IMG/VR virus record: IMGVR_UViG_3300033121_001335
Coordinates: 1 to 64,000 of that record
Length of the DNA: 64,000 bases
Direction: 5' to 3' (one strand)
Source: a virus
Lineage: Duplodnaviria; Heunggongvirae; Uroviricota; Caudoviricetes
The first letter of the stretch is position 1, and the number at the start of each line of letters is the position of its first letter. A program made the translations under genes and the position numbers. Under the pieces are notes generated by a model. That model saw only the letters and a program-made list of their open reading frames with translations. It had not been told where the DNA came from and ran no database searches. Below, piece by piece: positions 5,619 through 47,688 of the stretch.

Positions 5619-7178
5619 TTACCAGAACGGTATTTCTTCAATCAACACTGTACGAGACATATCTTCGATGAATACATCACACCTGTCATCCATAAATATG
5701 GTGTAAGCATCCATTTTGTTGGCGGCAGAGTGGCCCTGAGATGCCATAGCACCGAGGTGACTTCTACGACCATCAATATACCCCCATGTCATGTTAGGGC
5801 GGCCCTGTCTCCTCACCTCTCTGATGTTATTAACCAGCTGTCCATCGGAAGTTGGGCTTACATCAAATACGATGAAGATTGGAGTGGATTTTTTGTTTTG
5901 ACCAAACTCCAAATTAGTTTGAGGCAGGTCAAGCTCTGTCAGGTGAATCAGGCTTACAACACCAGTTTCACGGGTAACGAAGCTATCAAAAGCGTAGTCA
6001 AGACGTAAGTTTTGACCTTTTCCTGAAATGAATTTATCGTTATCGCCCACAGTGAAATTCAATCCTGAAGCCAAAGCATCAATTTTAACGGCTTGTTGGA
6101 AAGCATCAAAACCTGCTTCATTTGTATATAGTTTAACCTTGCGGTCTCCCATATTCACCCTACGATAGAACAGGTCTCCGAACACTGTACGCAATAGATT
6201 CACAGAGAATTCACCACGATTGTAAGGAACATAATTACCTGATTTTCTCATACGGTGTACGATACCAGCAGAGATTTTCTTCAGCTCTTGCTTAGAGCCA
6301 TTGGTACGACCAAAGCCCGGTTTAGCAAAGAACATACGATTCACTTTCAATTCCAACATCTCTTTACGCATGAGAAACTCAATAAATGGCTCCCATTTAA
6401 TGTCTGAACGAGATTGGATTTGACCATTACGCACATTAGCGTAATATATAATATCCATTGGGTTACCCCATATATCTTTCTTGCCGTTGGCGATACGCTT
6501 GTCATCAGCCCAACCTGTAATTGTGTGTTCTTTAGAATATCCAGAACCAAGAGTTTCGAACATTTCGAGTCTCTCAGCCAGTCTATCCAGACCCAATAAG
6601 TCTTGGTCAAATTCACCAATAGAGGCGTTAATCACTTCAACCTCTACACCCGGAACAAACCGAGAGCGGTCAACGCTATCCACTGTAGGATTAGCAGAAA
6701 CCAATGTGGCCCTATTCAACCAGCCTGAGTTATATGGAGTTGGGTCAGATGTTAAGAGGATTTGCTGACCATGAATCCTAGAACCCATACTAACGATGGC
6801 ATTCTTAGAGATTTTAGTATCAAACACCACCTCAAATTCTTTACCATCAATACCAATATTAGTTTGGTCAAGAGTGGATTGAGGAACATCTATAATCACC
6901 GGGAACATGTATGGTTTCTCAATCTCCCAACGCCATGTATCACTCATCCCATCCAAATAATAAGGAGTGGATTTGTCTAACATTTGCAGGAAGTCGTTTT
7001 TATACAATGATGTCTGGGTGTATAAAGATATGATTTTCTTATCATAATCCGAAGGAGTGTCCCTGTGGAAACTTTCTAAGTGATTACTATCAGTAAGTTT
7101 ACCGATAGCACGTTTATCCATTTGGGAAATTCTACCTGCGTATAAACCAGTAAATCCCGGTAAAAACTGTTGAGCCAT
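5619..7178 (-). CDS. major capsid protein candidate
   Basis: 519 aa. Call is by position only: immediately downstream of the acidic scaffold-like gene in the order terminase-portal-scaffold-capsid. Followed by a 167-nt hairpin-rich intergenic region. Confidence 0.5.
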   Translation of the reverse strand: MAQQFLPGFTGLYAGRISQMDKRAIGKLTDSNHLESFHRDTPSDYDKKIISLYTQTSLYKNDFLQMLDKSTPYYLDGMSDTWRWEIEKPYMFPVIIDVPQSTLDQTNIGIDGKEFEVVFDTKISKNAIVSMGSRIHGQQILLTSDPTPYNSGWLNRATLVSANPTVDSVDRSRFVPGVEVEVINASIGEFDQDLLGLDRLAERLEMFETLGSGYSKEHTITGWADDKRIANGKKDIWGNPMDIIYYANVRNGQIQSRSDIKWEPFIEFLMRKEMLELKVNRMFFAKPGFGRTNGSKQELKKISAGIVHRMRKSGNYVPYNRGEFSVNLLRTVFGDLFYRRVNMGDRKVKLYTNEAGFDAFQQAVKIDALASGLNFTVGDNDKFISGKGQNLRLDYAFDSFVTRETGVVSLIHLTELDLPQTNLEFGQNKKSTPIFIVFDVSPTSDGQLVNNIREVRRQGRPNMTWGYIDGRRSHLGAMASQGHSAANKMDAYTIFMDDRCDVFIEDMSRTVLIEEIPFW

Positions 7179-9108: not shown

Positions 9109-11703
9109 TTATTTCTTTGGTTTAGCCCTAGCCTTTTGTTTAGAGGCCTTTATTTTTTCTCTGTCAATTTTCATTTTCTCCATATTCTGCTCGAATTCCA
9201 CCTTTTTATTCTTTTGCTCGGCCTGAAACTGCATCATGTCCAGATTGAGCTTTTTGTTCTCTAGGTCTCTTTTGGCTATAGATTCCTGAAGCTTAAGCTG
9301 GTGTCCTGCTATTTCCATTATATCAGGGGTGCCATCTCCATCGGCATCTGTTGATGGTGCTTGGAAATATGTTGATATTTCTGCCTTAGCTAAGTCTGTA
9401 TTAGCCTTAACATCTGTCTTATATTTCTCCATCCTCAAATTGTCCTGATGGTGCCTTTCGTTTTGTTCTAATTGAGCCTGAGCTATTTCTTGCTCTCCTT
9501 GTGTCTTAGCCTGCTCATTTTCCTGCATTTGAGCCTGCATTTGGTCTTGCTTATTCTTAAGGTCTTTAAACACCTTCTGCATCTCACGGATGGAATTGGT
9601 AGCATAAAGAGCCGACACCTCGTATATACTAGCTCCATTTTGAAGCATAGCTTGGCTAAGCTGACGGAATTCGTTAAAGAGTTGTTGGTCTTCTGCTTTA
9701 GATGTTACAAACACCTTGAGGTCTTTTAGTTTTATATCCTCCCCTGTCACCTGAACGAATGCCGACTCCCCCTGAGAGGTTATAAAATTAACAGTGGAAA
9801 CTGGTTTCCTGCTTTCTATGTATTGGGAGCAATCAAGCATTGCTTGATATAGCTGGTTAAGGACGTATGAGTGGGCTGCAAAATATGGTTCTGTTTGAGC
9901 AAACGATTGAACCAAAGCATTCTGGTTAGCAGTGGCTGTTTCAGTGGCCAGTGGTGAACCAAGCCTTTGCCTATTCATACCTATAAGCTCCCAACATTCT
10001 TGTTTAAGCTGTACGGCCAATCTATACCGTGATTCTATTTCTGATGTTCTCGTAAGGTCTATATTCTTAGCTACAGTGGTGTTCTGTATAGACCCCTTTG
10101 TATTTTCAGGGGAATCGTCATCAAATATAATACCTCTCTTCCTTGCCTCTTCTTCCCATACGTCTATGGCATCGTTAGCATCTCCATCCTTCGGCCTTGG
10201 TATACGCCTAATGTTTACATTGGCAACATTACCAATCTCTTTTTCTAGAATTTCGAACAGCTGATTCATACAGATGTTGTATAATGTTTGGTAGGGTTTC
10301 ATCATATCCACCAAACTTTTAGGCTCTGTATTTTTCACTTCATGAATGAGACCTATAATAGGGGCATAGTCTAGGAGTGTGTATGGTTTAATGAAATAGA
10401 TGTCAGGGCCAATTTTAACTCCCTGATACCATTGATTAACCCAGCCCCATTCTATAGAAAGTTCTCCGGGAGACCCCTCTTTATATGATTCGTCTACGAG
10501 TGTGGTTTGTTCATCTCCTGCCTCATCTATATATGTAAGCTGACCCACCTTCTTTTTGGAATTCCAATAAGCTCTTATAACAACATATTTATATCCAAAG
10601 GAAAAGGCATTATTAGAACCAAGCCAATGATTGAGGTCATCTCTAAACTCATTGCCCAGCTCACTTTGTAAAATCATCCTTTCCTGATATATCAGCCTGT
10701 TATATGTATCATATTGAATTGTATTAATACCTGTTTTGTCCGTAAATAAGTTGGACTCTCTTCCATCCATGAATATAGAGTTTTGCATGGATTTCTGAAG
10801 ATGTTTAATTTCTTCTTCTGTGAGCTCTGGAAACTCTTCTATAATTTCGGATATTTCCTTAACATACACCGTACCTATTGCATAGGGTACGTTTGGTTCC
10901 CCCGAAGCACCTGATGTATATTTATTATCTGGTGTTCCTTTATGCCATACGTTTTTAGGGTTTTCTGTTTTGACATTAAATCCTAATTTGGAATTATCTT
11001 CATATATATGGTAGAACTCTCTGGAGCATATGAGAAGGTCTCTGAAAGCATCTTCTGATTTTTCCTTTGTATTAAACTGGGCTTTAAGAGCTGTGAGGAT
11101 ATGATTGCCCCACCTTTCAGCCAGCGATGTATAGTCTGTTAACAAGTCTTTAACATCTTCCATTACTAGTTGCTGCATGTCCTCATCGGAAATTTGAGAA
11201 GCATCCTCACCCTTCATAGCCATCTTATTTATAATAGTCTGTCTGGCTTGCTGGAGAATGAGTTGCTGAACTATTTCTGTCTTATATTGCAGTTCTTCGT
11301 TTCTGCTGTCGTCATCAAAAGCTTTCACCTTATGTATATCAGGTCTTTTAGAAAGCTCTCCCACCATTGTATTAACAGGTGGGTTTATAATTGGATAGTG
11401 CTTTACATATGATGGCAGGTCTTCTTTTTGTGTAAGAGTTTCTAAGAAGTCTTTAACCTCAGGGTCTGCATCCTGATAAAAGTCACTGGGTTTCAGTATT
11501 CCTTTCATCAAATCATAGTTCTTAACGAATGTCTCCTTATTTGCTTTATATTGCGTATACGCCATATTAGCAAAATAGTCAAGAGTGTTCTTGATGTAAG
11601 ATTCATTGGTAAGTTTCTCCTCCTCGCTTTTAAACGGGTCGGGGTAATTATTTAGATAGGAATATCCTAAATTAACATCACTATCACTTCTGGTAATTAT
11701 CAT
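9109..11703 (-). CDS. portal protein candidate
   Basis: 864 aa; overlaps the terminase stop (ATGA-type junction at 11700-11703); long Q/K/E-rich coiled-coil C-terminus; call is by position and size. Confidence 0.6.
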   Translation of the reverse strand: MIITRSDSDVNLGYSYLNNYPDPFKSEEEKLTNESYIKNTLDYFANMAYTQYKANKETFVKNYDLMKGILKPSDFYQDADPEVKDFLETLTQKEDLPSYVKHYPIINPPVNTMVGELSKRPDIHKVKAFDDDSRNEELQYKTEIVQQLILQQARQTIINKMAMKGEDASQISDEDMQQLVMEDVKDLLTDYTSLAERWGNHILTALKAQFNTKEKSEDAFRDLLICSREFYHIYEDNSKLGFNVKTENPKNVWHKGTPDNKYTSGASGEPNVPYAIGTVYVKEISEIIEEFPELTEEEIKHLQKSMQNSIFMDGRESNLFTDKTGINTIQYDTYNRLIYQERMILQSELGNEFRDDLNHWLGSNNAFSFGYKYVVIRAYWNSKKKVGQLTYIDEAGDEQTTLVDESYKEGSPGELSIEWGWVNQWYQGVKIGPDIYFIKPYTLLDYAPIIGLIHEVKNTEPKSLVDMMKPYQTLYNICMNQLFEILEKEIGNVANVNIRRIPRPKDGDANDAIDVWEEEARKRGIIFDDDSPENTKGSIQNTTVAKNIDLTRTSEIESRYRLAVQLKQECWELIGMNRQRLGSPLATETATANQNALVQSFAQTEPYFAAHSYVLNQLYQAMLDCSQYIESRKPVSTVNFITSQGESAFVQVTGEDIKLKDLKVFVTSKAEDQQLFNEFRQLSQAMLQNGASIYEVSALYATNSIREMQKVFKDLKNKQDQMQAQMQENEQAKTQGEQEIAQAQLEQNERHHQDNLRMEKYKTDVKANTDLAKAEISTYFQAPSTDADGDGTPDIMEIAGHQLKLQESIAKRDLENKKLNLDMMQFQAEQKNKKVEFEQNMEKMKIDREKIKASKQKARAKPKK

Positions 11704-13814
11704 CTGCTAAAGAGTTTTCTTTTCTTGCTTTTAAACATTTTTGATTCGAAGGTGAACAGTTTGTTCCCCTTTATTGGTTTCTTAAACAGAGACTGTATTC
11801 TTGGGTCAGCTTCTCCACCTATCTTACCTATAATTGGGTCTAGGTGATTGGATAGGGCTATTGCTAAGGAGAAGGCCACCTCTCTATCATAGTTGCCTTC
11901 TTCTTCATTAAAATTAATTATCTCCTCTAAAAGCATTGGGTCTGGTATGCGGGAAACCCCCAATGTTTCTTTTATTATAGAGCCTTGGTCGTCTCGTTCC
12001 TGCTTGATAACATCATCCAGATATTTCTTAGACCCGGCTCTTAGCATATCCCTGATTTTCTCAGAACTTCTATGTATACCCTTATCCCTTGTTACAGTGG
12101 TGTTTGGGACGTACAGCTTTAACCACTGAGGCTGGTCTTCTAAATAATGCCCATCGCCCTTACTAATCATATAATTAATGAAGGTCATGTCATCATTTTC
12201 ACAAAGTGTTCTGGCATTATACCATTTGATTAACATCCGGGCTTGCTCGTTCCATTTCTCAGGACTGTCAGGCCTTGACGCATAGGCCGCCACTATCATA
12301 TCCTGATATTTTTCAGAATGTATATCATGCATTCGCTTGAATATATACACAACGCCTAAAGAATCAGAATACTCTGCTTTTCCTTGCCTATAGTTATCCA
12401 CCCCCGCTACATATAGGCCAAATGGTGGGAGGTCATCAATGGGAAATTCCCACACCTGTATTGGAGCATCCTTATTTTGGGTCTTTACTGGAAACTCTGT
12501 AATAGGTAGTTTGTTTGAAGGCTTGTGGGTAATCCCCTCACCATTGTGGTATAATTCTACTAGTGAGCCCGTCACCCCATGAGCTCTTAATCTTTGTTGT
12601 TGAAACTTAGCCGCCTCAATATTATAGTCATTCTTTGTTAAAACTAAGAAGCTATCGGAGGCCTTTAAAGGCCAATAGGCTTTAAATTTCAGAACAGTTT
12701 TACTATTTCCTGATTTAAGGGCCTTCGCATATTCTGGTTTCCACCACTCTTCCAGAGCTCTCTCCTCATCACTAACAAGAATAGTTATATTATCAAAATC
12801 TGGATGTGGTTCTAATTTTCTCCCCAATTTTTCAGTGAGATAGCGATAGAGAGTCCAAGGCTGCTTATATTTCATTCTTGCTCTTAAGGCAGATATGAAT
12901 CTGCCCATCTTTCCGCCCGGAACCTCTGGATTATCAAAAGCTAAACTATTGTAAGAGAGTGGATTAAAGAACATTTCTCCTGCTTCTTTTCCCACTTCCA
13001 TATCCCCACCAGTTCCTGTTAGCATAACCAAGCACGATGGTTTATCCCCGCCGCCTGACCACCAACATCCATCTGAGTCTTTTACACATCCGATGAGGTT
13101 GGGTAATGTACCCTCTTCATCAATTACATGAAAACCGGGACGTGTACCATTGGCTGCCATTGTTTTATTACCATTCTCGTAATTCCTCACCTTTATAGAG
13201 GATTTAGAGGAAGCTGGGTCTGGCAGTCCTGTAGCCTTATCCTTCCACCCTGCTACGATTTCTTTTTTCCAATCTGAGGTGATGCGCTGTTTTCTAAACA
13301 TGGGATGTATGTTTAGAAGCCCATCCTCGATTTTATCTGTTACAAGCTTTATGTAGTTATAAGCCCCAGCAGATATTACAGCCTCACTTTGGTCATAGAA
13401 TGTGTATAAATGTCCAGCACATGAGCCGGCTATCACACTCTTACCAAAATCACGAGAGCCCACTAGGTTATATATCAATATACCCTCGTCTGTGCATTTT
13501 TCTAAATCGTCTACGAATATATCCCAATCTAAATCACGGAATAATGGAGTGATGATTTGACGAGATTTAACTGTCTTTCCTTTCACTTCCCTTTCTATAT
13601 ATGCTGCAATTTTCCAATATACAGTGTGAAAATATAGTCTTCCGGGAATTTTGAGCTGGCCATTTCCTATATAGAACCCATTCATACATCTGTCTTTCTC
13701 TCGTCTCCAATAATCACGAAAAACCTGCATAGCTTCCTCATCCTGAGGGTCGTATACGGGTTCACTCTGATTTGGAAACCAGATGTTAACGGTATTTAAT
13801 TGGTATTCTGGCAT
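11700..13814 (-). CDS. terL: terminase large subunit
   Basis: Walker A-like VGSRDFGKS, Walker B-like FHVIDEEG, C-terminal nuclease-like YVAGVDNYRQG; 704 aa. Confidence 0.75.
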   Translation of the reverse strand: MPEYQLNTVNIWFPNQSEPVYDPQDEEAMQVFRDYWRREKDRCMNGFYIGNGQLKIPGRLYFHTVYWKIAAYIEREVKGKTVKSRQIITPLFRDLDWDIFVDDLEKCTDEGILIYNLVGSRDFGKSVIAGSCAGHLYTFYDQSEAVISAGAYNYIKLVTDKIEDGLLNIHPMFRKQRITSDWKKEIVAGWKDKATGLPDPASSKSSIKVRNYENGNKTMAANGTRPGFHVIDEEGTLPNLIGCVKDSDGCWWSGGGDKPSCLVMLTGTGGDMEVGKEAGEMFFNPLSYNSLAFDNPEVPGGKMGRFISALRARMKYKQPWTLYRYLTEKLGRKLEPHPDFDNITILVSDEERALEEWWKPEYAKALKSGNSKTVLKFKAYWPLKASDSFLVLTKNDYNIEAAKFQQQRLRAHGVTGSLVELYHNGEGITHKPSNKLPITEFPVKTQNKDAPIQVWEFPIDDLPPFGLYVAGVDNYRQGKAEYSDSLGVVYIFKRMHDIHSEKYQDMIVAAYASRPDSPEKWNEQARMLIKWYNARTLCENDDMTFINYMISKGDGHYLEDQPQWLKLYVPNTTVTRDKGIHRSSEKIRDMLRAGSKKYLDDVIKQERDDQGSIIKETLGVSRIPDPMLLEEIINFNEEEGNYDREVAFSLAIALSNHLDPIIGKIGGEADPRIQSLFKKPIKGNKLFTFESKMFKSKKRKLFSR

Positions 13815-14938: not shown

Positions 14939-15228
14939 GATTCTTGGTTTAATTGTTTATTTATATTATCGTTTTCTTCTTTTGTAGCTATCGCCAACCA
15001 TTTCTTTTCCGGGCATTCGCAAGAAAGACAGGCACTCTTCTTCTTTAAGGGGCATCCGCAGCTCTTACAATAAGAGAACGATGTAACCCTTCCTTCTGAA
15101 CTATTAAAAGGACAATTAAGACACACTGCCAATCTTTGTGCTTGTGTTTCTCTTATCAGCTCCTTCATTTCCGTTGCTGGAAATATATCATTTTTCCAAC
15201 CCTCTAATATTTTTTTTAGACTGTCCAT
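14935..15228 (-). CDS. Cys-rich (zinc-binding-like) protein
   Basis: CLNCPF..CKSCGCP..CLSCECP motifs. The start could instead be Met21 (nt 15168), because 15188-15228 overlaps the upstream gene. Confidence 0.6.
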   Translation of the reverse strand: MDSLKKILEGWKNDIFPATEMKELIRETQAQRLAVCLNCPFNSSEGRVTSFSYCKSCGCPLKKKSACLSCECPEKKWLAIATKEENDNINKQLNQES

Positions 15229-15544
15229 GTCCCTGCTTTGTGTTTAAATAGTTTATCTCTTCTTTAAGGCTCTGTATTTTCTTAGAGTTTCTCTCCCCCT
15301 CCGGAAGGCTTAGATGGTAGTCTAGAAGAGATTGTCTCCTCTCTAGTCTCCTGTTTAGCTTTCCTGCTGTCACTAAAAGCTTTCCAAACCCAGAAAGTTC
15401 CACAGAACTACATGTTTTTGTAGCTTCTTTAGCCTGTTCATAACTCCAAGAAATCACCCTATCACATATAGACTCTTCTATTTGCAAGTCCTCAGAAACA
15501 GAGGCCAGAATCCAGTCTTTCGTTGACATATTAGCTGGCTTCAT
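15188..15544 (-). CDS. hypothetical protein, weak HU/IHF-like segment
   Basis: VELSGFGKLLV resembles the HU V.L.GFG.F.V strand pair; alternative start at 15529. Confidence 0.5.
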   Translation of the reverse strand: MKPANMSTKDWILASVSEDLQIEESICDRVISWSYEQAKEATKTCSSVELSGFGKLLVTAGKLNRRLERRQSLLDYHLSLPEGERNSKKIQSLKEEINYLNTKQGHGQSKKNIRGLEK

Positions 15545-18560: not shown

Positions 18561-18613
18561 AGCCAAATGTTTTATTTCACCAAATTTTTTAAAAAATTTT
18601 TTTTTCGAAAAAT

Positions 18614-18680
18614 GTGGGACGGGGGTGTCCACATCCCACTCACCACCCCCGCTTGAAAATACGGTAGGGGGTATTCCCCG
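18614..18680. promoter_or_regulatory. GC-rich alternative-pairing / pseudoknot-capable element in the divergent control region
   Basis: GTGGGA(18614-19)/TCCCAC(18634-39); CGGGGGTG(18620-27)/CACCCCCG(18644-51); GGGG..CCCC hairpin 18667-18679. Confidence 0.4.
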
Positions 18681-18706
18681 CATTAAACATTTAAAAACGA
18701 TAAAAA

Positions 18707-19144
18707 ATGACAACTACAACAATTAACACTGCTACTGCTAAAACGACTCTTGCTGAGCATGTTAAAGAAGCAAGTGTAGGGATGAACCAAAGCGTAGTGA
18801 TTGACGCTAAAACCTTCGTAAAAGACCTCGCAGCCCTTGAGGTGAAGGAAGAGTTTGATTACTACACGAGAGAGAACAGGGGGCATTTCAGGTTTTTTAC
18901 AGAGGACGGTAAAAAGCTTTGTGTTAGCATTTCAGAGGCTGGATTGGCTTCTGCACCTGCTAAAATCAAGCTTAGCGAAGAGCCATCCGAAATCCTGATG
19001 TGGAGTTTGAAAAACCTTACATTACGGAGTGGTGTTAGCAACACTACAGGCAATGACTACCTTTCATTTGGTGTTACTGGTGAAGGCACACTTGTCACTG
19101 GTAAAATCAACCTTAAGGCTTTCATTAAGGCTTATGCTGGTTAA
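18707..19144 (+). CDS. hypothetical protein, first rightward gene
   Basis: ORF track; own terminator downstream; ends ..KAYAG. Confidence 0.65.
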   Translation: MTTTTINTATAKTTLAEHVKEASVGMNQSVVIDAKTFVKDLAALEVKEEFDYYTRENRGHFRFFTEDGKKLCVSISEAGLASAPAKIKLSEEPSEILMWSLKNLTLRSGVSNTTGNDYLSFGVTGEGTLVTGKINLKAFIKAYAG

Positions 19145-19146
19145 TT

Positions 19147-19170
19147 AAAGGGGCTTCGGCCCTTTTATTT
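19147..19170 (+). terminator. intrinsic terminator
   Basis: aaaggggc-ttcg-gccctttt with a UUCG loop and a T-run. Confidence 0.7.
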
Positions 19171-19419
19171 ATATAAATAAGGGGAATATTATGAATGGAA
19201 TGGTTGTAATAGCCTAGTATTACAATATTCTCCTTATTCTATATATAGGGTGGGTAATAAGTGTATACGAAGGGTGGGAAATACCAAAAACGAGGACATT
19301 ATTTATTAATCAATTGATTATCAGAATGTTATGTGTCATACATTAACATTGCTGTGGGCATTCGATTGCCAATACATCACTAACTAAAACAAGCTGGGAA
19401 GCTTTATATCCATTAATTT

Positions 19420-19692
19420 ATGGCAAAGAGTCCTGTATTTGTATCATTAGACCTGTCCACAACAACTAATTCTGGTGATAAAGCTGTTGTTGACAAAAGA
19501 TTATTAACCTCTTTCTTTAAAAAGTTTGAGCCATCCAATTTGGAAGAGCTTAAAACCAGTTTAAAAACACTGATTGATAACAGCCAAACTATGGAGGAAA
19601 TGGCGGAAGTGGTGGATGAACACCTGTACATCACCCAAATAGCCACCAAATATCATGGAATCACTCAGTCTGAAGCTTTAGCTGGTGTCTAA
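19420..19692 (+). CDS. hypothetical protein
   Basis: ORF track; isolated gene in the control region. Confidence 0.5.
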   Translation: MAKSPVFVSLDLSTTTNSGDKAVVDKRLLTSFFKKFEPSNLEELKTSLKTLIDNSQTMEEMAEVVDEHLYITQIATKYHGITQSEALAGV

Positions 19693-19977
19693 TTCACATT
19701 AAATATGTTTTGGTTATGTCCAATACACGCTGCAATAGGTGGTGAGGACATAATTAAATGCATTGTTGTGACAATTGTGGCTATAAAATAGACAAATTTT
19801 GTCTTCAGCCTTGCTGGTGGCTTAATACAGAGGAATTATATGTACAATATATAGGGGATTTGGGCATCAGATGTGCTATTATTGCTGGCAGCATTGGTGT
19901 TCATTTCCCTATATATTAGTATGTAGTGTTTTCCCTATGGCAAAAAGTGACTAAATGGGCTATTTTTATCATAACTC

Positions 19978-19990
19978 ATTGATTATCAAT
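19978..19990. promoter_or_regulatory. operator-like palindrome ATTGATTATCAAT (copy 1)
   Basis: Perfect inverted repeat ATTGAT-T-ATCAAT. Confidence 0.45.
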
Positions 19991-20095
19991 AAACATTTAA
20001 CGATGATTATTGGTAAATAACGATATTTTTATGATAAAATGGGTGATTTGGGGGGTGTGGACACATCCTTGGAACTTTGGTTTATAACGTAAACT

Positions 20096-20108
20096 ATTGA
20101 TAATCAAT
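20096..20108. promoter_or_regulatory. operator-like palindrome ATTGATAATCAAT (copy 2, flanked by GTAAACT)
   Basis: acgtaaactattgataatcaatatt; 21-nt near-identity with copy 3. Confidence 0.45.
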
Positions 20109-20833
20109 ATTTGGGGCAAGCTATAATGGCATTAAAACTTAATAACTATGAGCAAAATAGTTAGGTCTTATATGGTATTAATACGCCATTTTATTGCTCT
20201 TCTGAGCCATTAAGCATAAGGTGAACAACAATGCACATTTGGGGAATGTATAAATCCAGCCAAGCTATAATAGATGCAAGTATCCTTAACATTAAATCGG
20301 AGGAGAAAACTGGACGACTATTATAGAGAATACGTCTTGGGACAAACGGTAACCATTATAAGTCCTTTTTACTTATAACACAATCTGCAAACCAAATAAG
20401 CACATAATCCAGTTGTTTGCTTATTTTAAGGGGTTGTGTTCAGGATATTGAACTAAAAGCACCAAATGGAAGGATTGCCTACACTTGTTCTGCTTTTGTT
20501 AATAAAAAGTAATTACGAAACATTCCAGTTTTGGGTGTATTAGACGAAGGTGAGATTATATTCACTATTACTTTTAAAATACACTGCATTGTATTTATTT
20601 TCATTTACCACTTATTATTATGATGCAAACTATTGTTTTTTAATTGTTCAAAAAGAACAAAAATAAGTTCTGGGTCATCACTATGTCATGACATATGTGA
20701 GAAAACCTCAATAACTGGGTTTTGTATGCCATTTGAAAAAATAAATGGTAGACTTTCCCTAATATTGTAAGAGGTGATAATGGTCGTATTGGTACAGGCA
20801 TGTAAGAATATACGACACACTATTATGTAAACT

Positions 20834-20846
20834 ATTGATTATCAAT
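20834..20846. promoter_or_regulatory. operator-like palindrome ATTGATTATCAAT (copy 3, flanked by GTAAACT)
   Basis: atgtaaactattgattatcaataag. Confidence 0.45.
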
Positions 20847-21016
20847 AAGTACATTTAGTGTCTGGTTCCCAGTAAGGATTTTAATAAGCTGTAAATCAAT
20901 TAGTTATTTCTATAACTTTGAGATAATTCAGTAATAAGTCCTCTTCCAGAGAGTGGAAAAGAAATCAAGACTCTCCTAAGGTTGTGAGTAGGCTGGTGTT
21001 ACCTGCAACTCTCCTT

Positions 21017-21055
21017 AAAGAATACAGAATTATGCAGAGTTCTGTATTCTTTATT
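21017..21055 (+). terminator. intrinsic terminator / 13-bp hairpin
   Basis: AAAGAATACAGAA (21017-29) / TTCTGTATTCTTT (21040-52), then TATT. Confidence 0.55.
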
Positions 21056-21058
21056 GTT

Positions 21059-21107
21059 ACCAAAGACAAACTGGTTGTTTAATATGGTTCGATTCCATAC
21101 TTTTGGT
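21059..21107 (+). other. tRNA-like minihelix (acceptor stem + T-arm only)
   Basis: T-arm TATGG-TTCGATT-CCATA (21083-21099). 3' strand CTTTTGGT pairs with ACCAAAG (21059-65). No D arm and no proper anticodon arm. Confidence 0.3.
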
Positions 21108-21290
21108 CTAAATTGTATTATTATGAGAAATTATACATTTCATTGGCAGTATAAATATCAAATAACTGTTTATAATGCCAATAATGATTCTAAAAGGACA
21201 CATTCATCTGATAATATTAAGGATATTATTGATATATATCTTGATAAGAAAAGTGAAGGTGTATATTTTAGATTTTTGAAAAATAAATAA
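21084..21290 (+). CDS. hypothetical small protein
   Basis: ORF track 21054..21290 trimmed to its first ATG (MVRFHTFGL...). Confidence 0.35.
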   Translation: MVRFHTFGLNCIIMRNYTFHWQYKYQITVYNANNDSKRTHSSDNIKDIIDIYLDKKSEGVYFRFLKNK

Positions 21291-21297
21291 AATCACC

Positions 21298-21477
21298 ATG
21301 TGGAAGAAAATATATTTTATAGACTATGATAAAGTCAAAAAATATATTTGGGTTTATACATACAAACAATTTAAACACCTCTGGATTAGCCTTTTACGAA
21401 CTAAAGGTGAGATGTTTATAAAAATCTCCAGTCCTGAGTGTGGACACCAATTATTATGGAAAGACTCTATCCAATAG
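21298..21477 (+). CDS. hypothetical 59-aa protein
   Basis: Manual translation MWKKIYFIDYDKVKKYIWVYTYKQFKHLWISLLRTKGEMFIKISSPECGHQLLWKDSIQ*. Confidence 0.35.
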   Translation: MWKKIYFIDYDKVKKYIWVYTYKQFKHLWISLLRTKGEMFIKISSPECGHQLLWKDSIQ

Positions 21478-21683
21478 AAGACACTAAATATTCAGCTGAT
21501 TTCTCTTCTATGAGTCCGTTTATATATAAAGACTTTCCCTTTGGAAGATTAGTTTTTAAATGTAAAGAGGCGGGGGCTGTAATCATAGTTACTGATAACA
21601 ATTCTGTTATGGCTGCAAGATTTTCCAGAGATAATATGAGGCATGGAGTAAAATATGCATTTAGACCAAAATTTACTAATTAA
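21456..21683 (+). CDS. hypothetical protein
   Basis: ORF track 21438..21683 trimmed to ATG (MERLYPIEDTKY...). Confidence 0.45.
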   Translation: MERLYPIEDTKYSADFSSMSPFIYKDFPFGRLVFKCKEAGAVIIVTDNNSVMAARFSRDNMRHGVKYAFRPKFTN

Positions 21684-21684
21684 T

Positions 21685-21768
21685 ATAATTCTCTTCCTTA
21701 ATAATAAGCACAGCTTTATTGTATATAGTATTTGTATATTTTAAAGTTTTATTAGGGAAGAGAATTAT
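21685..21768 (+). other. 20-bp-stem hairpin
   Basis: ATAATTCTCTTCCTTAATAA (21685-21704) / TTATTAGGGAAGAGAATTAT (21749-21768). The single U.G pair is valid only on the plus-strand RNA. Confidence 0.55.
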
Positions 21769-21780
21769 AATTGTTGCAAT

Positions 21781-22872
21781 AAAGAGTGAGAGAAGGGAAA
21801 CATATGAGAGCTTGACTCATCCTTTCGAAGAGCATCACTCTTTAAAATTGCACTAAAAGCTACGAAAAACCTGTAAGGTTTCTAGAGAAATAAGATGAAA
21901 ACAAATTCACCTTATTGGTTATAAGTGGCTAATTGATTATTAATAAAAAATTTCTTAATAGTGGAAGTATGAATAAGTGCTAACATAGATTAGCAGCTTG
22001 CACTATTAATAGAATGGTAACAACTATTTCTTCTGCACAACTCATGTAGATATACTTCTTAGGACTTGAGATACAAAAGACAGCCTTGCTTGATAGAAAG
22101 GTGTAGGGAATATGTATCGTTGGATAGACTATCATCGAATCCCTAACTAAGATGTGAAACTACCTGATTAATAGGGTCTATGGATGTGTTCATAGTTTAC
22201 GAAGTGCGAACCATTAATCAGCTCCCAAGGGTGAGACAGTTGTAATAGGACAAGTCGTAGTACCTGTAAGTGTGTTAAACCTACCACTATTACAACTGAG
22301 TGCAGAAGAAACCTCTTTAAGAACTCTCTGGCTCTTGTGCATACATAAAAGTTACCGCTTTAGCGTTGATAGCCTAACAGCTATTTACAGATGGCTGGTG
22401 TATGTGGAGAGAGTAGAATAGCTGATACCGAACTACCTATCTGGTGAAGGTTTGAAAGCTTTGACTTCTACTGGCTGTAACCCAAGAGAGTTCTTATTTT
22501 AAAAATATTAAAGCTTAAAGCTGTCTTCGGCACTCAGAAGACCCACAGCAATAAGCTTTAACTTCTTTATGACAAAATAGGGTAGTGGTAAGATAAAAGT
22601 AAAGATATTGAACCAAGGAGTATTCCAACTGTCAATTATGACCATGTTTGTGCACTAAGCAGAAAGCCAGTATACATGACGAGAGCTTCCTTAGGGGCAT
22701 CTTTTAAACTTACTGCTGCTCTATTTTTAACAGCAATATTTATTACATATAAAATAAAATAGCTCATTGTGATATGTTGGATTGAGCAATCTGACATAAG
22801 ATATAAGGATAACCTAAGAGAAGGGGGACACAGCAGGCTTATTGCTTGGTACTTATATCACCCGAAAGGGTT
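21781..22872 (+). ncRNA. candidate large structured non-coding RNA (~1.1 kb, ORF-free)
   Basis: Nested long-range helices: 21781-89/21835-43; 22027-38/22300-11 (12 bp); 22164-72/22213-21; 22237-48/22287-98 (12 bp); 22319-28/22486-95 (10-11 bp); 22508-23/22546-61; 22800-07/22852-59; a GAAA tetraloop hairpin at 22860-71. No ORF of 60 aa or more on either strand. Confidence 0.4.
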
Positions 22873-23027
22873 ATTTATTAACATTTAAATTTATAAACAT
22901 GAAAAAGCAAACTTTTACGCCTGATAAGGCAGTTATTGAACATATATCAAAATTAATCAAATCTGGGAGATGATTTTGATGTATTAACAAAATTATCAAA
23001 AAGTCTTAAAAATAAAAGCATTAAGCT

Positions 23028-23750
23028 ATGTTTAAAAGAGCAAAAGTGGTTATGTTACCCACTAATCAAAAAGCACCTGAAGGTACATTATATCTTCAAC
23101 ACAACCAGCTTAGAATATCCCAAGGAGGTATTACTAATGCAATTAATCAAAACAAAAATAATAAAAGTGTAAATCATCAACATCTTTATATTTTATCAGA
23201 TGAAGAAATAAAAGCTGGATATTTAGCAATGAATATGTACAATAATACAAATACCATATTCAAGATAACTAAAGTTTTAGCAGATGGTTACGAAGGTCAA
23301 AAACTTAATGAGCCCAATATATTTTATGGTTTATCTAAAACTCTTAAAAAAATTATTGCTACAACTGATAGTTCTTTAAAAGTTTTTATTGATAAAGCAT
23401 ATATGAATTTTGGAGAAACAGAGTGTTTACCTCAACCATCTCAATCATTCATTGAAAAATATGTTGAGAAGTATAATAAAGGTGAACAGATTACTGATAT
23501 ATTAGTTGAATACGAATTTGATGTAAGTAGAAAACCATTTGCTATTGGTAGTAATCCTGAACATTATAATCTTAAAGTAAATCTTAAAGACAACACTATT
23601 ACAATTAAGCCTGTAAAAGAGAATTGGAACAGAAGTGAAGTGCTTCATTTTCTTGGCGAAGCTTTCAGATTGGGCAAACAGGTTCAAAGGAGTCCTGATT
23701 ATTATTCTTTATGTGACCCATTAGCTGATTTAGCTAAAAAATTATTATAA
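23028..23750 (+). CDS. hypothetical protein
   Basis: ORF track; 240 aa; no motif recognised. Confidence 0.65.
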   Translation: MFKRAKVVMLPTNQKAPEGTLYLQHNQLRISQGGITNAINQNKNNKSVNHQHLYILSDEEIKAGYLAMNMYNNTNTIFKITKVLADGYEGQKLNEPNIFYGLSKTLKKIIATTDSSLKVFIDKAYMNFGETECLPQPSQSFIEKYVEKYNKGEQITDILVEYEFDVSRKPFAIGSNPEHYNLKVNLKDNTITIKPVKENWNRSEVLHFLGEAFRLGKQVQRSPDYYSLCDPLADLAKKLL

Positions 23751-25733: not shown

Positions 25734-25857
25734 TTACGCCCAACGGTTGCGTATATAAGAGGTACGCCACCGAGATTATGAACTGAAAAAATATGCTTCT
25801 GCGTATCTCTTATATACGTTGTTAGCAGAAGTACGAATTTTTAAAACAAAATAACTT

Positions 25858-26139
25858 ATGGAAAAAGAATTTATTTTATGTGCTGCATTAAATTTTAACG
25901 GAAATATAATTTGCGGACATAGGCATTCAGATTGTTATGCAACTTTACAAGATGTTGTAAAAGTAAAAGATGAAGATATGCCGCAAAGAGAAAATCAAGG
26001 ATTCTTAACTTCTTTAAATCGATACGTTGATAGAAAAGAAGGGTGGAAAATCGCAAAAGAAAACAATCAAATACAATGGGGATTAAGTGCTTCTGAAATA
26101 GGCGAAGATTCACAGTTAATTAGCGAAAATCTCTATTAG
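25858..26139 (+). CDS. hypothetical protein
   Basis: ORF track. Confidence 0.6.
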   Translation: MEKEFILCAALNFNGNIICGHRHSDCYATLQDVVKVKDEDMPQRENQGFLTSLNRYVDRKEGWKIAKENNQIQWGLSASEIGEDSQLISENLY

Positions 26140-26215
26140 AAACGAAAACGCAGTATTTCTGCTAACATACAATATGTGAGAACGGGTTATAAACTATTGA
26201 TTTAAAACAAATAGT

Positions 26216-27046
26216 ATGAATATTTCTGAACACACGGGTAATTTCATTCAGGAAATGAAACGTAGAAATTATAGCCAAAACACTATTGATAACTATTCTT
26301 CCTGCATTAAATATTTTTTCGCCCAATCAGCCAAAGACCATCCAAAAAATATTAACGAACAGGATATAAAAGATTTTTTAGGCAAGTTCACAGAGGTAAA
26401 TACTCAACGCAACTACCATAGTGCAATAAAGAAATTCTACGATGTTTGTTTAGGACAAAAGGAAAAGTTCAAATATATTCCTTACGCACAAAAGAATAGC
26501 AAACTGCCAATAGTTTTATCTGTTGAAGAAATACAAAAAATGTTCTCTGTTTGCGAAAACACTAAGCACAAAGTTATACTTGCCTTACTATACTCATGCG
26601 GATTGAGGGTATCGGAATTAATAAATTTGAAGTGGGCTGATATTGACCGAAGCAGAATGATTATAAATATCATTCAGGCAAAGGGCAAAAAAGATAGACA
26701 GGTTATGCTTACGCCTCAATTAATCCCGTTACTGGAAAAGTATTACAAAGAATATAAAAGTAAAACGTATGTGCTGAATGGATGGAAGAACGAATTGCAA
26801 TATTCAGATAGAAGTGTAGGCGAAGTGGTTAAGCAATTAGCAACTAAAGCAGGTATCAGCAAAAGAGTTTATACTCATTTACTTCGTCATTGCAGCTTTA
26901 CTCACATGGTAGAAAATGGAACGGACATAAATTTAATACAGAAATTAGCAGGACATAGTAATGTTAAAACGACATCTATCTATACCCATATTTCACATAA
27001 CTTGATTTCAAAGATACACTCCCCTTTAGCAAATATTAATCTTTAA
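26216..27046 (+). CDS. int: tyrosine recombinase / integrase (XerC/D-like)
   Basis: Catalytic pattern: GLRVSELINL (Arg), HLLRHCSFTHM (H-x-x-R), AGHSNVKTTSIYTH (His..Tyr). N-terminal SAM-like domain NTIDNYSSCIKYF. Confidence 0.9.
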   Translation: MNISEHTGNFIQEMKRRNYSQNTIDNYSSCIKYFFAQSAKDHPKNINEQDIKDFLGKFTEVNTQRNYHSAIKKFYDVCLGQKEKFKYIPYAQKNSKLPIVLSVEEIQKMFSVCENTKHKVILALLYSCGLRVSELINLKWADIDRSRMIINIIQAKGKKDRQVMLTPQLIPLLEKYYKEYKSKTYVLNGWKNELQYSDRSVGEVVKQLATKAGISKRVYTHLLRHCSFTHMVENGTDINLIQKLAGHSNVKTTSIYTHISHNLISKIHSPLANINL

Positions 27047-27723: not shown

Positions 27724-27903
27724 ATGACAATATTAACATTTCCCGTAGAAATGCAAGAAGATGTGTATAAAGTAACAGGGCAGCCAGCTCCGGATGAAGT
27801 TATTGATGTCACAGTAAAATTTAAAGAAACACTTTCCGATGAAGTGTTAGGATTATTAAAAGCTTTAGGTGTTCAAATCAGATTTATGACACCTGTAAAA
27901 TAA
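27724..27903 (+). CDS. hypothetical 59-aa protein
   Basis: Manual translation MTILTFPVEMQEDVYKVTGQPAPDEVIDVTVKFKETLSDEVLGLLKALGVQIRFMTPVK*. Confidence 0.4.
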   Translation: MTILTFPVEMQEDVYKVTGQPAPDEVIDVTVKFKETLSDEVLGLLKALGVQIRFMTPVK

Positions 27904-27910
27904 ATGAATG

Positions 27911-28166
27911 GTTGTTTGACACTTATTTGACTATATGTAAGACACGGGTTCGACTCCCGTCTGCTCCACCGGATTAATATTGACCATTTATAGGCCGGGT
28001 AATTCCGGTGGGGCAGCTTGGCTTTGATTGCATATCAGTGGATAGGAATAGACTATTCAGTGTAATAAACGGCAAGAGAATTGCTATTGGTAGAACTGCA
28101 ATGAGAATTGCGGCCTAACAACGTATTGCCCCCCTGTATTTATACAGCGAAAAGGGGGCTTTTTTA
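27911..28166 (+). ncRNA. circularly permuted tmRNA-like element (acceptor piece, 39-nt linker, coding piece, terminator); 27941-27970 is alternatively an attP core
   Basis: T-arm ACGGG-TTCGACT-CCCGT (27944-60). 3' acceptor CTGCTCC-A-CC (27961-70). 5' strand GGGGCAG (28010-16) is its exact complement with a G3:U pair. CUUGGCUUUGA D-loop analogue. P2-like UUGCAUAU (28028-35)/AUAUGUAA (27933-40). Tag-like frame 28071-28118 GKRIAIGRTAMRIAA*. Terminator 28128-66. Confidence 0.45.
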
Positions 28167-28185
28167 ATTATTTAAACTAAATTTT

Positions 28186-28449
28186 ATGAGTGATAATAAA
28201 TACATTGTAGAATGTTCTGATGAAGAAGAATGGGAAGCTGTTAAGGCTAAGGGAAATGTTGATTTGGGGAGCTATGAGGTGTATCAATATAGCTATCCAG
28301 AAGAACCTATAGCTATTGATGTTAATAATGGAGAATGAAGTAGGCTGAGTTATTACACTAACAAAAGGGGAGGAGAATATAGCGACTATAAGTTTATAAC
28401 AGCTCAAGAATATTTAAACCCTGTTTCTGAGCCTCTTCTATTTAATTAA
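28186..28449 (+). pseudogene. tail-family gene (..SEPLLFN) interrupted by in-frame TGA at 28336-28338
   Basis: Manual translation MSDNKYIVECSDEEEWEAVKAKGNVDLGSYEVYQYSYPEEPIAIDVNNGE*SRLSYYTNKRGGEYSDYKFITAQEYLNPVSEPLLFN*. Both halves are in one frame. Confidence 0.5.
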
Positions 28450-46609: not shown

Positions 46610-46617
46610 TATTGTAT

Positions 46618-47688
46618 ATGACAAAAGATGAGATTCAGGCGAAGGCTGTAGAACTATTTAAAAAACAGCCTTCGCTTTTAATTGAATGGCCTACGGGATG
46701 TGGGAAGGGGTTGGCTGTAATGAAATGTATTTTAGCCTCTGGAAATGGGCCAAAATGGCTCATTGTGGTGCCGGAAATCGTCCAAATAAGTAATTGGTGG
46801 CGAGATTGCGAAAAATGGGGCCTTAGAAACAAAATAAGCCCCTTTATTGAGGATGTAATATGTTATGCTAGCTTAAAAAATTGGGCCGGAAAACGGCTTA
46901 GAATCGCTTTAAATGAGTGTCACCACTTGTCAGAAGAAAGGGCTAATATTTTAGCTTCAATAGAATACACCCAAATTATAATGGACAGCGCCACAATACC
47001 CACAGACGTAAAGGAAAGACTTCCCGCTCATATCAGCTATAAAATAAGCATGAAAGAGGCGGTAGAATGGGGAATTTTGCCAGCACCGGGGGTAAATATT
47101 CATTATATAGAGCTTGACGATTGGCAAAAACTATGGCCTAAAAAGCTCAAATCAGGCAAAATATTAATGGTGACGGCAAAATCCTATTATAGTGATTTAA
47201 CAGCTAATTTTAAATATTGGCAAAATAGACACAGAATGGAGGGGGAGCCTTGGCAACAAAAAAGGATGTTTATGTCTGCTATATCCAGAAAGAGGTGGAT
47301 GTCTGAATATAAGACAAAAAAGGCCAAAGAGGTGATAGAGCTTATAAAGAATAAGAGATATGTCGTATTTTGTGGGTCTGTTAAACAAGCTAAAGAATTG
47401 GGGGGTAAACAGGCTATTCACAGTGGGAATAGGCATAATCAAGAACTTATTGATGAATTTAACATGTTGATAACCAATAATTTATATGCTTGTTCTATGA
47501 TGAAGGAGGGTATGAATTTAGAGGGCATAGAAGCCGGACTTATTACACAACTGGATGCTGGAGATTTGGGTAATATTCAAAGGTTGGGTAGATTGTTAAG
47601 AAGTGATTTTCCTGAACTTCATTTAATATGTTTAAAGGATACAAAAGATGAAGAATATTTAGAAAACTTTTTAAAAGCAATAAAATGA
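46618..47688 (+). CDS. superfamily-2 DNA/RNA helicase
   Basis: Motif I WPTGCGKG, motif II LNECHHL (DExH-like), motif VI QRLGRLLR. Start moved from TTG at 46612 to ATG at 46618. Confidence 0.75.
   Translation: MTKDEIQAKAVELFKKQPSLLIEWPTGCGKGLAVMKCILASGNGPKWLIVVPEIVQISNWWRDCEKWGLRNKISPFIEDVICYASLKNWAGKRLRIALNECHHLSEERANILASIEYTQIIMDSATIPTDVKERLPAHISYKISMKEAVEWGILPAPGVNIHYIELDDWQKLWPKKLKSGKILMVTAKSYYSDLTANFKYWQNRHRMEGEPWQQKRMFMSAISRKRWMSEYKTKKAKEVIELIKNKRYVVFCGSVKQAKELGGKQAIHSGNRHNQELIDEFNMLITNNLYACSMMKEGMNLEGIEAGLITQLDAGDLGNIQRLGRLLRSDFPELHLICLKDTKDEEYLENFLKAIK

Follow-up and report, generated by a model that had tools for sequence, protein, structure and literature searches.

What are several copies of a short palindrome doing in phage DNA that holds hardly any open reading frames (ORFs)? 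The question is raised by a 64,000-nucleotide stretch of a Caudoviricetes genome (IMG/VR record IMGVR_UViG_3300033121_001335, positions 1 to 64,000; hereafter the window). The initial annotation of this DNA took the copies for 21-bp operators of a dimeric regulator that controls a lysis-lysogeny or early switch, with a further half-site next to a recombinase gene. To our knowledge, little is known of the control of early gene expression in crAss-like phages, and no early control elements have been described. Here we describe a conserved 25-bp dyad site that, judged from sequence comparison, appears to mark the heads of early units in a freshwater clade of these phages. The sites are non-random, form a symmetric motif that extends beyond the palindromic core, are conserved in five lineages, and are tied to terminators and ORFs and to the breakpoints of homology. 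We propose, with a probability of about one half, that they are dyad-symmetric protein-binding sites of ~25 bp that punctuate the early region, switch its units and double as crossover points.

Three exact copies of the 13-mer core ATTGATWATCAAT start at 19978, 20096 and 20834. They span 870 bp and the core is found nowhere else in the 64 kb. Shuffles that preserve dinucleotides give 0.02 matches on average, and none of 100 reaches three. The longer 21-mer GTAAACTATTGATWATCAATA occurs twice as annotated (20089-20109 and 20827-20847; 0.03 expected), and the 12-bp palindrome ATGTCATGACAT at 20683 is likewise present. Two degenerate copies are also real, though their annotated coordinates were about 2 nt off: ATTGATTATCAGA runs from 19313 and ATTGATTATTAAT from 21932. 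The idea that the motif is denser here than elsewhere holds for exact and near-exact copies, which are clustered and non-random, but fails for looser matches, as the 13-mer with up to two mismatches is not enriched genome-wide (13 against 8.6 expected). The signal is thus the exact or near-exact copies plus their clustering.

The site is symmetric, as annotated, but its true extent is nearer 25 bp than 21. Thirteen independent sites, aligned as 26 half-sites, give the consensus TAA-N3-ATTGAT-W-ATCAAT-N3-TTA. In the half-site logo, T-12 A-11 A-10 is separated by three or four unconstrained positions from A-6 T T G A T, and W stands at the centre. The outer TAA, at positions -12 to -10 from the centre, is found in 14 of the 26 independent half-sites against a background of 0.038 (P ~1e-13).

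The phage is rare, and the relatives of the window fall into five lineages. The contigs L014, L024, L025 and L026 share ~94-99% DNA identity with it, and L027, L028, L030 and L031 share ~78-87%. L016 (an IMG/VR contig of 122 kb) and L019 (a groundwater contig of 124 kb) are each ~73% identical in the structural genes. L071-L078 have only a homologue of gene 2 (49% amino acid identity; see below) and a few short DNA islands in common with the window. Outside the five lineages, a further pair of contigs, L079 and L080, carries a site. The expectation that relatives would keep the motif is borne out: clusters of TTGATWATCAA, exact or with one mismatch, lie in the same early zone in all five lineages. 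These clusters persist where the surrounding non-coding DNA can no longer be aligned. In an unbiased k-mer survey of the early non-coding zones of four divergent lineages, words derived from the palindrome rank first among the shared multi-copy words. A scan of IMG/VR with the motif plus flank returned merely single scattered chance matches, and pattern searches of IMG/VR with the 240- and 90-amino-acid proteins of the region returned nothing.

Five sites of the window, here called A to E, lie 118-1100 bp apart, and a scan with a position weight matrix (PWM) ranks E, A, B and C as its top four. Site E (TAATCAATTGATTATCAGAATGTTA, 19307-19331; PWM 22.4) has a degenerate core and both outer triplets, TAA and TTA, and has positional orthologues in L014, L027 and L019rc. 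Site A (TAACTCATTGATTATCAATAAACAT, 19972-19996) forms the 3' end of the non-coding block 19920-19991, the best conserved of all; together with the 14 bases upstream it is invariant in the L027 lineage, which is 78% identical overall. Site B (TAAACTATTGATAATCAATATTTGG, 20090-20114) is A-centred and has decayed in the L014 lineage. Site C (TAAACTATTGATTATCAATAAGTAC, 20828-20852; PWM 23.3) is kept in L014 and L024. Site D (21926-21950) has the degenerate core ATTGATTATTAAT in the window and a perfect one, ATTGATTATCAAT, in L014. An extra match of uncertain function, TAACATGTTGATAACCAATAATTTA at 47460-47484, falls within a helicase ORF (46612-47688); its PWM score of 20.0 compares with null maxima that average 11.8 and reach up to 22.0.

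The gene content indicates that the window comes from an uncultured freshwater crAss-like phage. Profile scans place the structural genes on the minus strand, with the Crass_capsid major capsid protein at 5619-7178, the portal at 9109-11703 and the large terminase at 11700-13814. The replication module (DNA polymerase, helicases, primase, a Sak4-like protein and RecA) lies on the plus strand from ~31 kb onward. At ~19 kb both the transcription direction and the GC skew flip, and the palindromes lie just right of the flip. The nearest cultured phage is the cyanophage Leptolyngbya phage Lbo-JY46 (TerL 33% amino acid identity; 34.5% for the g004 homologue described next). A TerL search of GTDB genomes found no relative, hence no prophage or host, and a DNA search of 19200-23100 against 50,697 phage records gave zero matches.

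The protein of 240 amino acids encoded at 23028-23750 (plus strand) is homologous to early gene g004 of Cellulophaga phage phi14:2 (34% identity, E 1e-25). This gene anchors the synteny, which matches the palindrome region to the early region from which phi14:2 makes its long non-coding RNAs. In phi14:2 these RNAs are abundant, their function is given as unknown by the authors, and the rightward early genes are transcribed by the injected virion RNA polymerase gp66. By this comparison the ORF-poor block at 19693-23028 would be a crAss-type early non-coding region. Reading TAG or TGA as sense opens no long ORFs in the block, which therefore is not hidden coding sequence. No repeated palindrome of a comparable kind was found in the early non-coding region of phi14:2.

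Two small genes precede the block. Gene 1 (18707-19144, plus strand; 145 amino acids) is the first rightward early gene; it is kept in L014/L024, L027, L016 and L019 and also on the L079 contig, and is the sole local gene common to most lineages. Gene 2 (19420-19692, plus strand; 90 amino acids) is found in three of the five lineages and matches no family.

The copies occupy a regular place among these units, all of which run rightward in the site region. The usual layout is a terminator, then a site, then ~80-130 nt to the next ORF or non-coding RNA. A terminator, a site and an ORF ~100 nt on follow one another in this order at site E and at L071 1436, L019rc 18761 and L019rc 19461. Site E lies 146 nt past the terminator-like hairpin 3' of gene 1 (19146-19167, plus strand; -13.4 kcal/mol) and 107 nt ahead of the gene 2 ATG. 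Its positional orthologue in L019 lies ~70 nt past a terminator and ~100 nt ahead of the next ORF. The L071 copy is 40 nt past a terminator and 105 nt ahead of an ATG, and the copy at L019rc 19461 is 80 nt ahead of an ORF.

The remaining sites of the window head units that are largely non-coding. The unit that starts from sites A and B is ~320-450 nt long and is closed by a plus-strand terminator-like hairpin at 20395-20428, ~320 nt from site B (-12.1 kcal/mol, z -2.9, U-rich tail). Site C heads a unit of ~210 nt that is closed by a similar plus-strand hairpin at 21016-21053 (-18 kcal/mol, z -6.6, U-rich tail). These two of the annotated terminator-like hairpins are strong, but a third at 20645-20661 is weak (-4.6 kcal/mol). 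Site D follows a long plus-strand hairpin with 21-nt arms (21684-21769; -34 kcal/mol, z -7.6) and precedes a structured non-coding RNA candidate of ~180-240 nt (22320-22500, plus strand). This candidate is conserved in L019, L027 and L071 although the surrounding DNA there cannot be aligned. It has a closing helix (AACUCUCUGG/CCAAGAGAGUU), two conserved blocks, CUCUUGUGCAUACA and UGUAUGUGGAGAG, that pair mutually, and a hairpin CAGCUAUUUACAGAUAGCUG, a variable arm with few compensatory changes and then a U-rich tail. Rfam models run at a permissive threshold gave only chance microRNA matches in the ORF-poor block and left the candidate unmatched. It may be a counterpart of the early long non-coding RNAs of phi14:2.

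Other conserved elements were seen in the surroundings of gene 1. A plus-strand leader at 18575-18706, before the gene, consists of A/T tracts followed by ACACCCCC...GGGGGTA(C/T), which are able to pair; it is common to L016 and L019 despite unalignable flanks. A variant of the palindrome, TTGAAAATCAA, is present in both of these contigs 150-215 nt upstream of gene 1, and a second conserved element, TATATAGGGTGGGTRAT, lies at 19240-19258 after the gene 1 terminator.

Homology between relatives breaks at the edges of the sites. The window is 86-87% identical to L028, L030 and L031 over 1.7 kb, up to position 19991, which is 7 nt from the centre of site A. Past this point nothing can be aligned for 2.1 kb. 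L014/L024 diverges from L027/L028 at 11 nt from the same centre, and three different sequences are found downstream of site A in three lineages. At site D the window is 98% identical to L014 up to 21945, again 7 nt from the centre, and unrelated beyond. Ends of homology at 7 or 11 nt from a centre were thus recorded for the window against L028, L027 and L014 (two sites) and for L014/L024 against L027/L028. Contigs end there as well. L025 ends in ...CATTGATTATCAATA at the edge of site A, where the window type and the L014 type branch off from each other, and L079 (57 kb) and L080, which may stem from the same sample, both start with CCATTGATAATCAATG at a site edge. Because homology and contigs both stop at site edges, the sites are also junctions of a mosaic. 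The association is strong but not exclusive, as indels between close relatives also occur away from the sites (19757/19920 and 21290/21364). The hairpin at 21016-21053 is likewise an assembly break point, in L013 and L015. The simplest reading of the junctions is homologous exchange within the only sequence common to otherwise unrelated modules.

Another repeated element of this region was seen in the plus strand at 21372-21419. It is CTCTGGATTAGCCTTTTACGAACTAAAGGTGAGA, a CCUUU/AAAGG stem-loop that is 92% conserved, and its copy in the window falls within small ORFs that are themselves doubtful. In relatives it stands directly 5' of different genes, namely gene 2 in L071 and others in L016rc (~20397) and L019rc (~20423). 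From this distribution it looks like a mobile regulatory stem-loop cassette, and its position ahead of differing genes fits the picture of mobile regulatory pieces.

Whether the palindrome acts as a duplex or as a hairpin can be judged from its variants. In every site that has both outer triplets, the bases that separate these from the core are non-complementary. No compensatory changes are seen among the variant sites, several of which break the stem. As single-stranded DNA, sites A to C close a 3-nt loop with a stem of 5-6 bp, at a folding energy of just -1.7 to -2.4 kcal/mol, and no fold forms at site D. Weak folding, spacers that are not complementary and outer triplets placed symmetrically are more in keeping with a dimeric protein that reads the duplex than with a hairpin. 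These features give moderately good support to a duplex site bound by protein and make it less likely that the motif is a terminator, a hairpin promoter in extruded form or a stem in RNA.

A mechanism can be outlined on this basis. The copies would head short, largely non-coding rightward early units, after terminator-like hairpins. A dimeric DNA-binding protein, encoded by the phage or by the host, would occupy them, and this could be a sequence-specific regulator or an architectural protein of the IHF/HU type. Once bound, it would turn the early units on or off in a co-ordinated way. The sites, as the sole sequence common to otherwise unrelated modules, would in addition serve as crossover points when co-infecting relatives exchange cassettes. 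What we infer in this outline is that a protein binds, which protein it is, how it affects transcription and by what mechanism recombination proceeds. Of the dimeric regulator first proposed, the symmetric, conserved sites at the heads of units stand; the lysis-lysogeny part does not, for reasons given below.

Several points weigh against the reading of the sites as regulator-binding punctuation of the early region. The lineages number only five, and all of them are metagenomic. Some of the breakpoint coincidences could arise if a conserved site is merely the last alignable piece of a conserved block. A scan with the sigma-70 consensus, which may not be the host's, shows no enrichment (19 matches against 21.4 expected), and Bacteroidota-type TAnnTTTG elements, which may not be the host's promoter type either, do not track the sites. 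The transcription study of phi14:2 reported no common motif upstream of early transcripts. Pfam, PHROGs and NCBIfam scans of the neighbouring ORFs found no repressor (helix-turn-helix (HTH), CI or Cro). The model of the gene 1 product, of moderate confidence, has OB folds as its best matches, and these are weak (Z <=4.2). A candidate HU/IHF-like protein of 118 amino acids, encoded on the minus strand at 15188-15544, has an AF2 model that is all-helical, without beta arms, and its Foldseek matches to HU have E values of 2.8-6.8.

Other candidate binders were considered. A sequence search with the gene 1 product against solved structures found no match. Gene 2 was rejected as an HTH binder, as its HTH-looking C-terminus is not conserved among homologues. 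Site B agrees at 14 of 19 positions with the 19-bp Fur box, a weak lead in AT-rich DNA that was set aside.

The alternative that survives best, possible but in our view unlikely, is that the sites are architectural sites for IHF or HU and not classical operators. A host IHF or an HU/IHF-like protein of the phage would bend the DNA there and so build a nucleoprotein complex that serves early transcription, the start of replication, or packaging close to the end of the genome. The core consensus of IHF in E. coli is WATCAANNNNTTR. The half-site YAA-N4-TTGAT-W is its reverse complement, at all specified positions and with the same 4-nt gap, an agreement that is a lead and not a test. A conserved gene for an IHF subunit is known from crAss-like phages (gp074 in phi14:2). 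In the window the best lead for such a binder, a weak one and not a result, is the HU/IHF-like candidate at 15188-15544. Its product carries V-x-L-x-GFG, a hallmark motif of HU/IHF, and its homologue P0009 bears the JGI name 'nucleoid DNA-binding protein'. The same candidate scores under the Pfam cut-off (PF00216, 20.4 bits against 22.4), its model is without the beta-ribbon arms, and its Foldseek E values for HU are above 1. The form of the site also argues against this alternative: canonical IHF sites are asymmetric, with the consensus in one half only, and one dimer cannot engage two consensus elements that overlap at a single W.

Recognition by an RNA polymerase was weighed in two forms. 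In the first, which we regard as doubtful, the palindromes would be promoters or obligatory co-factor sites for an injected virion RNA polymerase and would also bound mobile early non-coding-RNA cassettes. If this is true, early transcription in crAss-like phages would have its first known cis-element, of a kind that the study of phi14:2 was unable to find. The second form, a very improbable one, draws on phage N4, in which the virion RNA polymerase uses hairpin promoters with a stem of 5-7 bp and a 3-nt loop, in several copies. By analogy, the sites would be early promoters that a packaged polymerase recognises as extruded DNA hairpins. Their location in the rightward early region, the equivalent of which in phi14:2 is transcribed by injected gp66, is consistent with this, as are the three perfect copies, accompanied by degenerate ones, close to where the early region begins, and the 5-6 bp stem and 3-nt loop at sites A to C. 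In vitro gp66 used denatured phi14:2 DNA, as well as single- and double-stranded M13 DNA. However, the hairpins are AT-rich and, at -1.7 to -2.4 kcal/mol, marginal, with site D unfolded, and conserved symmetric outer triplets with non-complementary spacers fit recognition as duplex. In addition, no common motif was found at the early transcript starts of phi14:2, and the polymerases of N4 and of crAss-like phages are unrelated.

The half-site led the initial annotation to link the palindrome to a recombinase. The gene in question (26216-27046, plus strand; 276 amino acids) encodes a tyrosine recombinase of the Xer type, with NF040815 as its best model (212 bits against a cut-off of 220). The half-site TAAACTATTGAT is indeed present at 26190-26201 (plus strand), 14 nt before the ATG at 26216, but a link between the recombinase and the palindromes is not supported. 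Its TTGAT belongs to the recombinase module's own conserved upstream sequence, which reads TTGATTTAAA in L063 and TTGAATTAAA in L036; only the seven bases TAAACTA are common specifically to it and to sites B and C. Relatives of the recombinase occur on 30 IMG/VR contigs at 56-85% amino acid identity, and in DNA comparisons of seven of them with the window, nothing was shared beyond the gene and ~20-30 nt 5' of it. No palindrome cluster lies within 10 kb of the recombinase at any of 27 scanned relative loci, and in L027, which bears the motif, no recombinase gene was called in the 5.3 kb downstream of gene 1. The recombinase is thus an independent mobile module, at whose left junction the half-site lies. 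The half-site may be a former site where the module joined the genome, or a functional half-operator. Among genomes, the closest relatives of the recombinase are from a Bacteroidota metagenome-assembled genome (MAG; 82%) and a Legionella MAG (83%), both on short contigs, and from a 78-kb Chitinophagaceae contig (63%).

These results also bear on the proposal that the sites are site-specific crossover sites, used by this Xer-like recombinase or by an integron-like system to define mobile cassettes. It would account for breakpoints and contig ends exactly at site edges, a tyrosine recombinase lies 5-6 kb off with the half-site at its start, and the best NCBIfam matches of the latter include 'tyrosine recombinase/integron integrase'. 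We find the proposal less probable still than the hairpin promoters of the N4 type. The 6-1-6 palindrome lacks the overlap region of 6-8 bp that tyrosine recombinases use, and inspection of the flanks shows no 11-6-11 dif-like pattern. The integron-integrase model TIGR02249 reaches 182 bits against its cut-off of 265, and its match is broken in two, which means that the protein lacks the insert specific to IntI. Inversions between sites were not seen, and the relative loci without a palindrome cluster, as well as the stretch of L027 without a recombinase, further separate the gene from the motif. As particular forms, a dif-like or loxP-like site was ruled out by the 1-bp spacer, with only TAA/TTA symmetric beyond +/-7, and an integron attC by its need for a long imperfect inverted repeat, the sites here having a 13-bp core and non-complementary spacers.

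The lysis-lysogeny switch itself fares no better. No repressor can be recognised, the sites are not clustered operators, and the scanned loci of recombinase relatives are without the motif cluster. The regulators named as candidates, and their neighbours, matched no known DNA-binding family. Tandem operators that overlap divergent promoters between a repressor and a cro-like gene are not the arrangement found here.

Two features beside the recombinase were noted in their own right. Inverted repeats of 29 nt that are 76% complementary (25806-25834 and 26153-26181) flank an ORF (25858-26139) immediately 5' of the gene. The right arm, 26153-26181, contains CTAACAnAnAATATGT, which is conserved ~45 nt upstream of the recombinase in several IMG/VR relatives. 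The segment at 25750-26181 may serve the recombinase as its own site, or may be invertible. Downstream of the recombinase by ~0.9 kb, a permuted tmRNA gene occupies 27879-28209 (plus strand). It matches Rfam RF04321 in full length at 27911-28118 (53.7 bits against a gathering threshold of 47), and ARAGORN gives the tag GKRIAIGRTAMRIAA. This may be a tmRNA that the phage carries, or a piece of an attachment site.

To an action of the motif in RNA we give the same low credence as to site-specific recombination. Such an element might be a boxB/nut-like antitermination signal, a processing or protein-binding hairpin, or a means of pairing between copies. The region is probably highly transcribed as non-coding RNA, if phi14:2 is a guide, and the terminator-like hairpins after each site would need read-through. 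G-U pairing is kept in the variants at sites D and E and at L019rc 19461, and the T-centred and A-centred copies are exact reverse complements. Yet there are no compensatory double changes, the stem is just 5-6 A-U-rich pairs and is broken at L016rc 19518 and L027 5471, and a hairpin leaves the outer TAA/TTA symmetry, with its non-complementary spacers, unexplained.

Least probable of all is that the sites bind the initiator of a replication origin at the divergent junction, which the cumulative GC skew minimum at ~19 kb, a GC content down to 0.288 that is among the lowest of the window (0.28-0.42), and the prediction of origins at the start of the forward-strand module in prototypic crAssphage (PMC10983915) would favour, but the skew switches at the point where transcription reverses and so is not independent evidence, the sites at 118-1100 bp apart are not a phased iteron array, and family scans found no initiator or RepL-like gene nearby.

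Further observations concern other parts of the window and its relatives. Sixteen small plus-strand ORFs between 27425 and 42909 end in the peptide P-[L/Q]-[I/L/M]-F-N-stop, often after E or T, and the peptide occurs zero times on the minus strand and at internal positions. Its codons vary synonymously (CCT/CCA/CCC, TTA/CTT/TTG/CAA, TTT/TTC, AAT/AAC), which indicates that selection acts on the shared C-terminal peptide; early proteins may use it for docking or as a degron. Relatives carry homing-endonuclease genes in their small-ORF block that are absent from the window, GIY-YIG in L014/L024/L025 and NUMOD4-HNH in L027/L028, and an ORF at L016 2017-2451 was read as HNH-like by eye alone. In L019 the large-terminase gene is split by ~1.1 kb absent from the window (equivalent to ~13013), which may be an intron or intein. 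Immediately to the left of the divergent junction, on the minus strand at the equivalent of window ~18.3-18.6 kb, L025 (4226-4459) and L027 (3476-3709) encode a protein of 77 amino acids with a precomputed Pfam match to Acb2_Tad1_hairpin, an anti-defence sponge family.

The 25-bp site offers a handle for finding its binder, for mapping early promoters, and for testing early shut-off or activation. Among known systems, the kinds it resembles are phage operators and motifs of shuffling like the promoter-early stem-loop (PeSL) cassettes. Operators of phage repressors or of early-shut-off regulators, such as those of lambda, P22 and 434, are dyad-symmetric and present in several copies in a control region. 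The sites described here are similar in their two-fold symmetry over ~13-25 bp, their several control-region copies, their variable central base and their conserved half-sites. They differ in that the copies are hundreds of bp apart, one per unit, and neither a repressor gene nor a link to lysogeny was found. The likeness to IHF sites lies in each half, which agrees with WATCAANNNNTTR at all specified positions and in spacing; unlike IHF sites, two such elements are fused head-to-head into a palindrome with one base in common. The hairpin promoters of N4 are similar in that several small inverted repeats lie in the DNA transcribed first, in a phage whose own RNA polymerase is injected. They are set apart by the AT-rich, marginal hairpins here, the unrelated polymerase family and the symmetric outer elements.

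The closest parallel to the junctions is found in the PeSL regulatory cassettes of T4-type phages (Comeau et al. 2014, PMC4122927), at which homologous exchange was shown by Arbiol et al. 2010 (PMC2839356). A PeSL combines a strong sigma-70-like promoter with a terminator stem-loop, whereas the crAss-like phages studied here have a 25-bp dyad site at which the sigma-70 and TAnnTTTG scans place no promoter. The hairpin that the palindrome itself can form is weak, and the strong hairpins are separate from it, 200-450 nt downstream. In other respects the two agree. In both, a short conserved motif is repeated in a hyperplastic, ORFan-rich early region, where it flanks variable ORFs or units and stands at unit boundaries beside terminator hairpins. 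In both, the junctions of insertions, deletions and replacements between close relatives fall at the motif, as at sites A and D. The coincidence of sites and breakpoints suggests that modular shuffling at regulatory motifs, of the T4 type, also shapes the early region of this unrelated order.

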